Source: a virus. From it: 11,904 bases of DNA. Under the pieces are notes generated by a model. The model was not told where the DNA came from, ran no database searches, and was given only the letters and a program-made list of their open reading frames with translations. The position numbers were made by a program, and so were the translations under genes. Positions 2,845 through 6,883 of the stretch are shown here, in pieces; position 1 is the first letter of the stretch; the number at the start of each line of letters is the position of its first letter. The stretch is from UHGV virus genome UHGV-2157276, one strand, 5' to 3'.

Positions 2845-2874
2845 TGGCTGAAAGAGGGGGTTATTAAGGCGTGA
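2845..2874 (+). pseudogene. 3'-terminal remnant (about 10 codons) of a ybcO/nin-region gene whose stop overlaps the rusA start
   Basis: Frame ending [13 protein letters not shown] (stop 2872-2874) overlapping GTG 2871 of rusA resembles the C-terminus of DLP12 YbcO as I recall it. Upstream of about 2845 the frame is antisense xis-flanking DNA with no coherent coding signal. Exact boundary is uncertain. Confidence 0.3.
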
Positions 2875-3233
2875 ATACCTACAGCATCACATTACCCTGG
2901 CCTCCGAGCAATAATCGCTATTACCGCCATAATCGCGGGCGCACACACATCAGCGCAGAAGGGCAGGCATACCGCGATAACGTCACCCGAATCATTAAAA
3001 ACGCAATGCTGGATATCGGCCTGGCTATGCCAGTGAAAATCCGTATTGAGTGCCACATGCCGGATCGCCGTCGCCGTGACCTGGATAATCTGCAAAAAGC
3101 CGCTTTTGACGCACTCACCAAAGCAGGTTTCTGGCTGGATGATGCTCAGGTCGTTGATTACCGCGTTGTGAAGATGCCTGTTACCAAAGGTGGGAGGCTG
3201 GAACTGACCATCACCGAAATGGGGAATGAATGA
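2871..3233 (+). CDS. rusA: RusA-type Holliday junction resolvase, 120 aa
   Basis: GTG start at 2871. Protein [26 protein letters not shown]...[12 protein letters not shown] is recognised as RusA (nin-region resolvase of lambdoid phages / DLP12). Confidence 0.9.
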
Positions 3234-3370
3234 TGTTTGAGTTTAATATGGCAGAACTTCTTCGCCACCGCTGGATGCGCCTGCGCTTATATCGTTTCCC
3301 CAGTTCTGTTTTGACCGATTACCGAATACTGAGGAATTACGCCAAAACCCTGACAGGAGCAGGAGTATGA
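3230..3370 (+). CDS. ylcG: Small protein YlcG-like, 46 aa; not in the supplied ORF track
   Basis: ATGATG at 3230-3235 overlaps the rusA stop (3231-3233). Hand translation gives [46 protein letters not shown], stop TGA at 3368-3370. Matches DLP12 YlcG from memory. Confidence 0.6.
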
Positions 3371-3455
3371 AGTCAGAGATAACAATCAACTAATACTGTT
3401 TTATTGATTTTTGCTTGTAATTGGCGTTCTGGTCTGATTTTTGTGGAGTAAGTTG

Positions 3456-3839
3456 ATGCGTGATATTCAGATGGTTCTTGAGCGTTGGGGAGCGTGGGCG
3501 GCTAATAATCATGAAGATGTGACCTGGTCGTCCATTGCCGCCGGTTTTAAGGGATTAATTACTTCAAAAGTAAAATCTCGCCCGCAATGTTGTGACGATG
3601 ACGCGATGATCATTTGCGGGTGCATGGCCCGTCTGAAAAAGAACAACAGCGATTTGCACGATTTATTAGTAGATTATTATGTAGTCGGTATGACATTCAT
3701 GTCACTGGCAGGTAAGCATTGCTGCTCTGATGGTTATATCGGGAAAAGGTTACAGAAGGCTGAGGGTATAATTGAAGGGATGTTAATGGCATTAGATATC
3801 CGGTTAGAGATGGATATCGTTGTTAATAACTCTAATTAA
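3456..3839 (+). CDS. quuD: Late-gene antiterminator Q (QuuD-type), 127 aa
   Basis: ATG at 3456 preceded by GGAG (3445-3448, 7-nt spacer). Protein [24 protein letters not shown]...[11 protein letters not shown]. The ORF track starts at an upstream TTG (3441), which is less likely. Confidence 0.85.
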
Positions 3840-3849
3840 TATGCCAATT

Positions 3850-3891
3850 GTTTACTAAAAATTATTAAAAATGGGGCGTTGAGACGCCCCC
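3850..3891 (-). terminator. Intrinsic terminator for the minus-strand porin transcript
   Basis: Stem GGGGCGT / loop TGAG / ACGCCCC at 3873-3890; on the minus strand it is followed by ATTTTTAATAATTTTT. Confidence 0.5.
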
Positions 3892-3978
3892 AAAAATAAA
3901 GGGTAATATATAACAGAAGGTTTATATAGTTAGAAGCAAGGTTGTGCTCCTAAAGGAAGTGGCTTGAGGGAGCCACTT

Positions 3979-4012
3979 ATATGTTGGGGAGGCAAAGCCT
4001 CCCGCAACATAT
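3979..4012. terminator. Long stem-loop between Q and the nmpC 3' end; possible plus-strand terminator or mRNA-stabilising hairpin
   Basis: ATATGTTG-GGGAGGC / loop AAA / GCCTCCC-g-CAACATAT, a 15-bp stem with one bulge, followed on the plus strand by CTTTTAG. A second hairpin AAGTGGCT-tgaggg-AGCCACTT lies at 3957-3978. Confidence 0.4.
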
Positions 4013-4027
4013 CTTTTAGTAATCAAA

Positions 4028-5110
4028 TTAGAACTGGTAAACCATACCTACAGCAACGATATCATCGGTAGCAACGCCAGATGCTTTCGTGAAATCGCTC
4101 TTATCAATCAGGTTGATTTTGTAATCAACAAAAGTGGACATATTTTTGTTGAAGTAATAGGTTGCACCTACATCAATATATTCAACCAGGTCCTGATCAC
4201 CCCACGCACCCAAGTCTTTTCCTTTAGATTGCAGGTAAGCAACGGACGGACGCAGACCGAAGTCGAACTGATATTGTGCAACTACTTCGAAGTTTTGTGC
4301 TTTGTTGGCAATATGGTTATTACCAAAAACAGTCATGTTCTGGGTTTCAGAATAGGTGGTAGCCAGATAGATGTTGTTCGCATCATATTTCAGACCAGCT
4401 GCCCATACTTCAGCATTTTGACCAGATGCATTCAGGCTGTTGTTACCGTAGATAACCTGATTATTAGTGCGGTCAGATTTAGCATAGGTTGCACCTACAC
4501 CGAATCCTTCATACTCATAAGTAGTGGAGAAACCGAAACCATCACCATTAGCTTCAGTTACGTCAGTGCGGTCATTTTTACCCTGATACTGAGCAGCAAA
4601 GTTCAGACCATCAACCAGACCAAAGAAGTCATTGTTACGATAAGTTGCAACACCTGTGGTGCGACCAGTCATGAATACATCTGTTTGGGTCCAGGTATCG
4701 CCACCGAATTCTGGCAGAACGTCGGTCCATGCACCAATATCGTATGCTACACCGTAGTTACGGCCATAATCGATGGAGCCGTAGTCACCGAATTTCAGGC
4801 CAGCGAAGGCAAGACGGGTTTTATCTTTGGAGGAACCTTGAGATTCAGCGCGGTTGCCTTTGAATTCATATTCCCACTGACCGAAACCAGTCAGTTGATC
4901 GTTGATTTGGGTTTCACCTTTGAAGCCAAGACGGGCATAAGTAGTATCACCATCATCTGCATCATTAGAGGAGAAGTAGTGCTTAGCATTAACTTTCCCG
5001 TACAGATCCAGCTTGTTACTGTCTTTATTATAAATTTCAGCTGCCTGAGCAGACATCGCCATCAGTACTGATGCAGCTACAGCAGAAATTGCCACTGTTA
5101 ATTTTTTCAT
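4028..5110 (-). CDS. nmpC: General-diffusion porin of the OmpC/PhoE/NmpC family, apparently intact (360 aa)
   Basis: Start ATG at 5108-5110 gives [23 protein letters not shown] signal peptide then [16 protein letters not shown]; C-terminus ends VAVGMVYQF with the terminal Phe typical of porins. The ORF track's upstream start (5185) adds 25 non-porin residues. No IS interruption. Confidence 0.9.
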
Positions 5111-5140
5111 CGTGAGCCCTTTTTTTGAACTATTATTAAA

Positions 5141-5170
5141 AAATGATGTCACTGCAAATGATGTCACTGC
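5141..5170. repeat. Perfect tandem direct repeat, 2 x 15 bp (AAATGATGTCACTGC), 31-60 nt upstream of the nmpC start codon
   Basis: Read directly: 5141-5155 and 5156-5170 are identical. Confidence 0.85.
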
Positions 5171-5356
5171 GCGATAAATATTCATCTAATCAATGTGATT
5201 ATTTCAAGATGTAAGTTTTGGTTTCTCATTTGATTTGTGAAGTAGATCTCTATTTTTATCTGAACTTTTTCTATCGAATCCTATTCATGGCTCTTGGCTG
5301 AATAAAAATAAATCTATTAGCCAATTTATATTAATGGCTGTTATTTATAAGTGCTC

Positions 5357-5362
5357 TATAAT
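5357..5362 (+). promoter_or_regulatory. Candidate -10 hexamer of the late promoter (pR'-like)
   Basis: Perfect TATAAT on the plus strand about 190 nt upstream of the terminator at 5552-5584, similar spacing to lambda pR'/tR' (about 194-nt 6S RNA). No convincing -35 found. Confidence 0.3.
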
Positions 5363-5551
5363 TTGAAGATTCAATTTAAACCAGCTAAAAATAACGCTGG
5401 AAATTATTTGTTGGTTATTTGTTGAGATTTGCTTATGTATTTGTAGTGGTGTTTTCAATACTCGGTAGCATTCTCGCAAATATCATTTAGTGGTTTACGT
5501 ACGTAAAAAATTGGTTATGCTGTTAAGAGTGGTTACTTCGTCACACAGCTT

Positions 5552-5584
5552 AAACCCGCCGTCGAGCGGGTTTTTCCATTTTTT
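5552..5584 (+). terminator. Intrinsic terminator upstream of the lysis genes (tR'-like)
   Basis: AAACCCGC / loop CGTCGA / GCGGGTTT followed by TTTTTCCATTTTTT on the plus strand. Confidence 0.6.
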
Positions 5585-5712
5585 GAGTCTCGATATTAGC
5601 TGATAACCCAATACCTGAGTTATTCACTGACTCCGAGTCTGTTACGTTTCTGCTTTTTTGCGATACGTTGTATTCCCTCAATTTACACCCGCTTTGTCTG
5701 CGAGGTGGGGTT

Positions 5713-5928
5713 ATGAAATCCATGGATAAGTTAACAACGGGTGTCGCCTATGGCACCTCAGCAGGTAGTGCCGGTTACTGGTTTTTACAGCTGCTCGATA
5801 AAGTCACGCCCTCACAGTGGGCAGCAATAGGTGTGCTGGGTAGCCTGGTATTTGGCCTGCTGACGTACCTGACAAACCTTTATTTCAAGATTAAAGAAGA
5901 TAAGCGCAAGGCTGCGAGAGGTGAATAA
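5713..5928 (+). CDS. essD: Phage-21-type pinholin with dual-start motif (antiholin/holin), 71 aa
   Basis: ATG at 5713 preceded by [80 protein letters not shown]; two TM segments, Met1-Lys-Ser-Met4 dual start, charged C-terminus. The ORF track start (5668) is upstream with no RBS. Confidence 0.9.
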
Positions 5929-6425
5929 TGCCTCCATCATTACGAAAAGCCGTTGCTGCTGCTATTGGTGGCGGAGCAATTGCTATAGCATCAGTGTTAA
6001 TTACTGGCCCAAGTGGTAACGATGGTCTGGAAGGTGTCAGCTACGTACCATACAAAGATATCGTTGGCGTATGGACTGTATGTCACGGACACACCGGAAA
6101 AGACATCATGCTCGGTAAAACGTATACCAAAGCAGAATGCAAAGCACTCTTGAATAAAGACCTTGCCACTGTCGCCAGACAAATTAACCCGTACATCAAA
6201 GTCGATATACCGGAAACAACGCGCGGCGCTCTTTACTCATTCGTTTACAACGTGGGTGCTGGCAATTTCAGAACATCGACGCTTCTTCGCAAAATAAACC
6301 AGGGCGATATCAAAGGCGCATGTGATCAGCTACGTCGCTGGACATATGCTGGCGGTAAGCAATGGAAAGGTCTCATGACTCGTCGTGAGATTGAGCGTGA
6401 AATCTGTTTGTGGGGTCAGCAATGA
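5928..6425 (+). CDS. rrrD: SAR endolysin (T4-lysozyme-like, phage 21 R-type), 165 aa
   Basis: Start overlaps the holin stop (TAATG). N-terminal Gly/Ala-rich weakly hydrophobic segment [18 protein letters not shown] (signal-anchor-release domain), followed by an E..D..T motif region ([17 protein letters not shown]). Confidence 0.9.
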
Positions 6426-6883
6426 ACAGAGTAACCGCGATTATCTCCGCTCTGGTTATCTGCATCATCGTCTACCTGTCATGGGCTGTTAATCATTACC
6501 GTGATAACGCCATTACCTACAAAGCCCAGCGCGACAAAAATGCCAGAGAACTGAAGCTGGCGAACGCGGCAATTACTGACATGCAGATGCGTCAGCGTGA
6601 TGTTGCTGCGCTCGATGCAAAATACACGAAGGAGTTAGCTGATGCGAAAGCTGAAAATGATGCTCTGCGTGATGATGTTGCCGCTGGTCGTCGTCGGTTG
6701 CACATCAAAGCAGTCTGTCAGTCAGTGCGTGAAGCCACCACCGCCTCCGGCGTGGATAATGCAGCCTCCCCCCGACTGGCAGACACCGCTGAACGGGATT
6801 ATTTCACCCTCAGAGAGAGGCTGATCACTATGCAAAAACAACTGGAAGGAACCCAGAAGTATATTAATGAGCAGTGCAGATAG
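6422..6883 (+). CDS. rzpD: Spanin inner-membrane subunit Rz, 153 aa
   Basis: ATG at 6422 overlaps the endolysin stop (ATGA). N-terminal TM segment [19 protein letters not shown] then coiled-coil-like sequence. From the start of this gene the DNA appears lambda-like. Confidence 0.9.
6642..6824 (+). CDS. rzoD: Spanin outer-membrane lipoprotein Rz1, 60 aa, embedded in the +1 frame of Rz
   Basis: [20 protein letters not shown] lipoprotein signal with lipobox, Pro-rich mature region [16 protein letters not shown]; entirely inside Rz. Confidence 0.85.

Follow-up and report, generated by a model that had tools for sequence, protein, structure and literature searches.

In phage lambda, the late promoter PR' lies directly after the Q gene and is constitutive; its transcripts end at the terminator tR' as a short RNA, the 6S RNA of 194 nt, and Q makes RNA polymerase read through this terminator into the lysis genes. 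The Q protein of lambda belongs to a family (PF03589) that is unrelated to the one treated here. Phage 21 (structure 6p18 and others; genome OL657228) has a Q of the family PF06530, and transcription from its promoter, PR'21, begins 7 nt past the stop codon of Q. An intrinsic terminator, annotated from +3 to +50, is found within about 50 nt of this promoter, the binding site of Q21, between -35 and -10, is a direct repeat, ATTGAGCA/AATGAGCA, and a pause element, TAAGCT, occupies +2 to +7. In the Stx phages (933W, and Sakai Sp5/Sp15), the promoter overlaps the end of Q, with 21 nt from the stop codon to the start site, and the start was mapped by dRNA-seq at 258 nt upstream of the 3' end of the transcript, which was found at tR' by Term-seq (Sy et al., PMC7547250). 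This unit is the source of the StxS RNA, the 258-nt leader contains a 74-nt Hfq-binding 3' fragment, and RNase E cuts the RNA at +173 within the sequence GUAUU, between GU and AUU (PMC7547250). Phage 82 was considered as one more model for Q and PR' and was dropped, since the papers give positions without sequence and the family assignment is dubious: a bioRxiv text gives PF06530 for both the Q21 and the Q82 families, which looks like a typing error.

How does a late-gene switch look when Q is no longer beside its promoter? The window analysed here, a stretch of 11,904 nt from the virus genome UHGV-2157276, includes the region that controls the late genes of a lambdoid prophage of the DLP12/PA-2 type, as judged from Pfam assignments, open reading frames and gene order. 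The genes are rusA (2871-3233), ylcG, Q (3456-3839), a porin gene on the opposite strand, an S21-type pinholin, a SAR endolysin, Rz and bor, and the same order is found in DLP12, a cryptic prophage of K-12, in phage PA-2 and in many complete lambdoid phages. Many E. coli chromosomes carry a 99.4% identical sequence over 3300-5720. K-12 is identical to the window over the PR' module and the terminator, and its DLP12 prophage (qsr') is the same element, with an IS5 in the porin gene and without a 15-bp duplication that is found in the window. In the genome of a mutant phage 434 (isolate 434B, OL657227.1), the own Q-to-holin region has been replaced by a DLP12 block, consisting of quuD, nmpC::IS5 and the spacer, so that Q and PR' are 2.9 kb apart. 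The features to which the following text refers are given below, the promoters, terminator and binding element being predictions.

3456-3839, + strand: quuD, Q antiterminator of the Q21/Q933W family, 127 aa (PF06530, 4e-53; RefSeq name quuD)
3816-5492, - strand: cargo cassette between the Q core and PR' (homology to Stx-phage Q stops after LEMD and resumes at 5493)
4028-5110, - strand: porin gene nmpC/lc (PF00267, 3.9e-153)
5127-5159, + strand: sigmaE-type promoter candidate, GAACTA (5127-5132), 16 nt, TCACT (5149-5153), start at about 5159 (read from the sequence)
5494-5528, + strand: putative late promoter PR', -35 TTTACG (5494-5499), 16-nt spacer (5500-5515), -10 TATGCT (5516-5521) (homology to Stx-phage PR')
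5495-5506, no strand: perfect 12-bp dyad TTACGTACGTAA, candidate Q-binding element, overlapping the -35 and the spacer, centre at about -27.5
5528, + strand: predicted PR' start, A5528 (+/-1) (transferred from the dRNA-seq-mapped Stx-phage start)
5528-5551, + strand: predicted initial transcribed region AGTGGTTACTTCGTCACACAGCTT, conserved (Stx alignment and folds)
5552-5584, + strand: predicted intrinsic terminator tR', stem-loop 5552-5573 and T tract TTTTTCCATTTTTT to 5584 (consensus scan)
5585-5712, + strand: leader from tR' to the lysis genes, no further terminator predicted (scan)
5713-6883, + strand: lysis cassette (PF04971, PF00959, PF03245; RefSeq and phage annotations)
5713-5928, + strand: essD, S21-type pinholin with a dual start, Met1/Met4 (PF04971, 3.5e-35)
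5928-6425, + strand: rrrD, SAR endolysin of the cassette
6422-6883, + strand: rzpD, spanin of the cassette

QuuD is a member of the PF06530 family (178.8 bits against a cut-off of 26). To the Q21 structures 6p18 and 6jnx it shows 32 bits (E 7.6e-7) over residues 8-87 only, that is, the N-terminal 80 residues alone can be aligned, while its residues 1-126 are 78-81% identical to the 144-aa Q of Stx phages. The conserved core stops at the residues LEMD (nt 3815), and the last seven codons differ from those of Stx-phage Q. As Q cores of the related loci end at this conserved LEMD and their tails vary, we take the end of the core for the left edge of insertions; their right edge is found immediately upstream of the dyad. 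The Stx phages have a promoter that overlaps the end of Q, whereas the window has a shorter Q tail and a 1.7-kb porin cassette, which appears to be opposite-strand cargo inserted at the point where the Q core ends, with the PR' -35 on its other side. This cassette holds the porin gene, a structured 3' UTR, a minus-strand terminator (3890-3873) and an upstream region (5111 to about 5490). An earlier note on this DNA had stated that the porin gene separates Q from its target, and indeed 4028-5110 lies on the minus strand between Q and the terminator region. The porin 3' UTR (3840-4027, minus strand) can form several hairpins in addition to the strong terminator at 3890-3873 and gave no Rfam match. 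This is the site at which the IpeX RNA of DLP12/PA-2 has reportedly been described.

The upstream part of the cassette has a history of its own. Next to the porin gene, the segment from 5114 to about 5465 is found even at chromosomal sites without Q and lysis genes, and all porin-less relatives lack it. In strain 2A, the porin gene, together with some 350 bp upstream of it, is located between ybcM and yedK without Q, PR' or lysis genes; in strain 3502, a homologous upstream segment is present in the same neighbourhood, where no porin gene is annotated. These two loci indicate that the porin upstream segment can exist apart from a phage late region. A tandem direct repeat, TTATTTGTTGG/TTATTTGTTGA, at 5404-5425 in this region was considered as a binding element in the manner of Q21 and rejected, because it is porin-cassette DNA that is absent from relatives.

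Where, then, is the promoter on which QuuD would act? The segment of Stx2 phage II (locus L005) that runs from the last Q codons through the first hairpin (2922-3003) aligns with 5493-5575 of the window at 77% identity (E 7e-12), and the -35, the dyad, the -10, the start region and the first hairpin all have homologous counterparts in the two. The distance of 258 nt to the mapped 3' end and the RNase E cleavage at +173 place the Stx-phage start at A2957 of L005 (TAAG-A-GTGG), which corresponds to A5528 in the window. The -10 of Stx2 phage II is TATCAT, and its -35 is TTTACG and overlaps the end of the Q gene. The target promoter of Q is therefore most likely to be sought about 170 bp downstream of the TATAAT (5357-5362) that the earlier note had proposed, with a start about 25 nt before the terminator. 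Among the matches listed, partial matches in E. coli genomes begin at 5494-5498 and end at 5575, which are the edges of this module, and the window contains no second copy of it. Both hexamers are modest (4/6 and 4/6, with a 16-nt spacer), and an A-tract found upstream of the -35 in relatives is missing in the window. Of 128 loci sampled, 122 have TAnnnT at positions -12 to -7 and the remaining six have CAGTAT there. It is to be noted that the consensus promoter scan of the window listed neither the TATAAT site nor this PR' defined by homology, and so could not separate the two. The earlier note had also supposed that Q-dependent promoters are commonly without a good -35; this is at variance with TTGACA in PR' of phage 21 and with TTTACG or TTAACG-like hexamers in the present family. 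In K-12, the predicted PR' start corresponds to 577229 of NC_000913.3, and a search of literature texts by such coordinates gave nothing relevant.

In the initial transcribed region, we found no convincing sigma-dependent pause element, and the TAAGCT of phage 21 has no clear counterpart in the window. 933W has TACATT at +7 to +12, and the window and most relatives have TACTTC, without the final T. [quoted passage not shown]

If transcription starts at A5528, the hairpin spans +25 to +46, and the terminated RNA is predicted to be about 50 nt long, instead of the RNA of about 200 nt that the earlier note expected. The site at 5552-5584 is the predicted first terminator of the late transcription unit under Q control. 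Its stem has eight pairs, five of them G-C, with a loop of six and the tail TTCCATTTTT in the consensus scan. The earlier note had called it a strong intrinsic terminator; the site is indeed present, and the word strong goes too far for a hairpin of about -11.7 kcal/mol (z = -1.9 against shuffles). A hairpin and a T run at about +25 to +50 are found in nearly all of 57 distinct leaders, with changed stem sequences. RNAalifold detected only weak covariation among 23 leaders, since their hairpins are put out of register by indels, and folding of each sequence was more informative. PA-2 and 17 other loci have a G-to-T change at the position equivalent to 5566 in the 3' arm of the stem (GAGCTGG vs GAGCGGG), by which the predicted stability falls from about -11.7 to about -6.5 kcal/mol. 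This change suggests that control of the late genes may be leakier in PA-2-type phages.

Downstream of the terminator, the pinholin gene follows after about 130 nt, as the earlier note had noticed, and the leader between them has its homologue in the DNA that precedes the holin gene in SfII/SfIV. The homology to Stx phages stops after the first hairpin (5575 = L005 3003), and there the two systems part: the Stx phages have 200 nt of additional leader (StxS), the second, mapped terminator at +258, and then tRNAs and stx, while in the window the pinholin is 130 nt away. The StxS locus (the 258-nt PR' leader, the 74-nt fragment and tR' at +258) has no match in the window beyond 5575. Read-through of the homologous first hairpin in Stx phages is evidently frequent enough for the 258-nt RNA to be made. 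Judged from these comparisons, the switch of the window would work like those of phage 21 and the Stx phages, with a promoter of the same family as the mapped Stx PR'. With phage 21, it shares the Pfam family of Q, the S21-type pinholin/SAR endolysin cassette, a terminator close to the promoter and a candidate Q-binding site in the interval from -35 to -10. With lambda, it is predicted to share the logic of the switch, and differs in an RNA of about 50 nt as against 194 nt; it is neither a lambda-type unit of 200 nt nor one with a StxS leader.

Displacement of PR' from Q is not peculiar to this prophage. We scanned IMG/VR with the leader motif TAAGAGTGGTTNCNTNGNCAC and obtained at least 120 loci; as the scan was seeded with this motif, invariance of the leader in the set is partly by construction and the set has an ascertainment bias. 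Outside the forced positions, the loci share a dyad at about -34 to -22, an A run, TAnnnT, and the hairpin with its T run. A Q homologue is found upstream in 106 loci. Q ends 9-44 nt before the start in 25 of these 106; the distance is 630-2889 nt in the remaining 81, which have cargo between. This cargo is very diverse and almost always encoded on the opposite strand, so that a porin between Q and PR' is just one instance of a common arrangement. Diverse cargo was noted in L004, L024, L027 and about 80 other loci, a lipocalin in phage 1H12 among them, and of ten cargo proteins tested, three have matches among the candidate defence families of PADLOC (PDC-S20, PDC-S42 and PDC-M53A).

The perfect dyad at 5495-5506 deserves attention in this context. 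The window and the Stx phages share the class TTACGnnCGTAA together with the promoter type, and other loci have GCGTACGC, GCGGTCCGC, GGAATTCC, GTTATAAC or TTCGTTACGAA. The class of the dyad agrees with the clade of Q in 42 of 42 representatives of the 106 loci, with or without cargo. As the dyad thus changes in step with the clade of Q, it is a candidate for the element to which Q binds, and we regard this as fairly probable, the evidence being correlative. In our literature search, no paper was found that names both QBE and 933W.

Three places can be proposed for the rightward promoter of this region, and their merits are quite different. According to the earlier note, PR' is the TATAAT at 5357-5362, with a start near 5369 and an RNA of about 200 nt ending at 5584, on which Q acts. 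The hexamer is present on the plus strand, its spacing to the terminator is 190 nt, like the length of the lambda 6S RNA, and it is conserved in 31 of 35 distinct spacers despite variable flanks. Yet the window has six perfect copies of TATAAT against 7.09 +/- 2.56 in shuffles, and six or more occur in 140 of 200 shuffles; its occurrence is no more than chance, and by itself it is no evidence for a promoter. At 17 bp upstream stands ATGGCT, which matches a -35 in three of six positions, and there is no TGn. Moreover, the segment that contains the TATAAT is missing in all porin-less relatives and is found by the porin even without Q or a lysis cassette, which makes it cargo DNA instead of a part of the Q switch. 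The TATAAT segment does not show the link to Q specificity that is expected of a lambda-type promoter some 190 nt before tR'; it is at 5495-5506 that an element varies with the Q clade, and 5494-5528 is the stretch with homology to the PR' mapped in the closest relatives of this Q. That PR' is the TATAAT is therefore very improbable, and of the lambda-like layout in the earlier note, the terminator and the displacement of Q from its target stand, and the assignment of the promoter and the RNA length do not. Still less credible is a PR' directly after Q at 3840-3900, from which transcription would cross the porin gene in antisense. A PR' in this canonical position is what phage 21 and the Stx phages have, but neither the promoter scan nor the search for the conserved module found a promoter-like site or a copy of the module there, as the earlier note had implied, and the segment is the 3' flank of the porin gene with its minus-strand terminator. 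Could the TATAAT be a promoter of another sort? The 6-9 nt on either side of CTATAAT are hypervariable (patches 5349-5354 and 5364-5372), CTATAAT is kept in the same 31 of 35 distinct spacers, and relatives of 77% identity in porin loci without Q have CATAAT. A conserved hexamer between hypervariable flanks is the pattern of a functional -10, from which a Q-independent sigma-70 promoter of the porin cassette may be imagined, giving low-level rightward RNAs of about 215 nt that end at tR', or interfering with transcription of the porin gene. In one variant, the weak -35 ATGGCT becomes ATGACA, and a SELEX peak of sigma-S RNA polymerase, of low resolution, falls in the insH-essD spacer of K-12 (PMC5493296). 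Against it, such hexamers are common by chance in AT-rich spacers, no conserved RNA fold was found 3' of the TATAAT and the downstream hairpin is not conserved, and Rfam gave no match at E <= 1 in the whole window, including the interval from the TATAAT to the terminator. We hold a promoter of this kind to be possible but rather unlikely. Strain 3502 has an (ATTT)n expansion at the hypervariable spot near 5349-5372. We return to PR' at 5494-5528.

Two further doubts concern what the parts of this PR' module do. The hairpin at 5552-5573 might be mainly an element for pausing or RNA stability, with the effective block of late transcription elsewhere. This would suit the homologous Stx hairpin, which is followed by 200 nt more of RNA before the mapped tR', as well as a stem of only moderate stability that is weakened by G-to-T in 18 loci. 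On the other hand, the scan found no other plus-strand terminator between 5528 and the start of the holin gene, all Q clades retain a hairpin and a T run after it, although the sequence changes, and phage 21 has its terminator at the same place, so we consider this reading improbable and keep that of a terminator. As for the dyad, it might be the operator of some other phage regulator, or its match with the Q clade might come from linkage alone: Q21 binds a direct repeat while the window has a dyad, 8-12 bp are short for two helix-turn-helix protomers, and Q and PR' are linked, so that shared ancestry could produce the correlation. However, the match is one to one in 42 representatives, even across up to 2.9 kb of unrelated cargo, and the leader types just downstream of the hairpin are shuffled among the dyad classes. 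In a natural chimera, the L038 clade, Q is 81% identical to QuuD in its N-terminal half and 44% in its C-terminal half, and the dyad differs, that is, the class follows the C-terminal half of Q. The position of the dyad, between or over the -35 and the -10, is also that of the elements of lambda and phage 21. Such an operator, or such linkage, seems to us the distinctly weaker of the two explanations, and the dyad as the binding element of Q is preferred.

K-12 work adds another candidate upstream. Control of K-12 essD-rrrD-rzpD by Q and RpoE has already been reported (Rueggeberg 2013, 2015, cited in PMC7918800), and PMC7918800 gives the primers Pdlp12Fw/Rv as spanning -121 to +650 of the regulatory region of the DLP12 lysis operon (citing Rueggeberg 2015). 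From the primer span, the implied +1 would be at 5159, just downstream of GAACTA-16-TCACT. This sigmaE-type candidate reads toward the lysis genes, and as it starts some 20-50 nt past the start codon of the porin gene, it is antisense to the porin leader. At 5142-5171, 15 bp are duplicated in tandem, AATGATGTCACTGCA/AATGATGTCACTGCG, which doubles the TCACT of the sigmaE-like promoter in the window; this duplication is absent from 34 other distinct porin-type spacers examined. RNAs from 5159 or from the TATAAT at 5357 would have to cross the same terminator at 5552-5584.

The switch can now be pictured as follows, and we consider this model probable to a high degree. QuuD, encoded at 3456-3839, would act in trans on a sigma-70 promoter PR' at 5494-5528, with the porin cargo between them. 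When Q is not present, PR' transcripts are supposed to end at the hairpin and T tract of 5552-5584 (+25 to about +57), leaving an RNA of about 50 nt; when Q is present, RNA polymerase would pass the terminator and transcribe essD-rrrD-rzpD with the remainder of the late operon, for which the 434B genome with its DLP12 block is the one piece of indirect support. The homology, the positions, the conserved hairpin and the recurrent order of Q, cargo and PR' were observed directly, and from these we infer the start site (by homology), termination at this hairpin, read-through with Q and the role of the dyad. The TATAAT at 5357 would belong to the porin cassette and would not be PR'. A wider proposal is offered tentatively, as we would not quite call it probable as a whole: Q proteins of the QuuD/Q933W branch may read a dyad at the -35, in at least six specificity classes set by the C-terminal half of Q, unlike Q21 with its direct repeat; the junction between the Q core and the dyad may be a general hot spot for opposite-strand cargo, porins and candidate anti-phage systems among it, that leaves a working switch, which we propose to be because Q works in trans; and the TATAAT at 5357 may be a promoter of the cargo that feeds the same terminator.

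The interpretation in the earlier note is thus partly supported: right for the terminator and the displacement, wrong for the promoter. The region itself is ordinary and largely known already, and what deserves to be followed up is the co-variation of the dyad with Q, together with the slot for cargo. Of 5,426 complete E. coli genomes, about 3,700 have a match to the module at 5494-5584 or to something closely related, a count that includes matches to flanking sequence since the query was 5440-5720, and no annotated feature lies under the module in the RefSeq and phage records inspected. Correct placement of PR' affects how late operons of prophages are annotated. [quoted passage not shown] The candidate dyad offers a direct way to test which late operon responds to which Q, and the recurrent slot between Q and PR' is a useful place for porins and defence genes carried by prophages.
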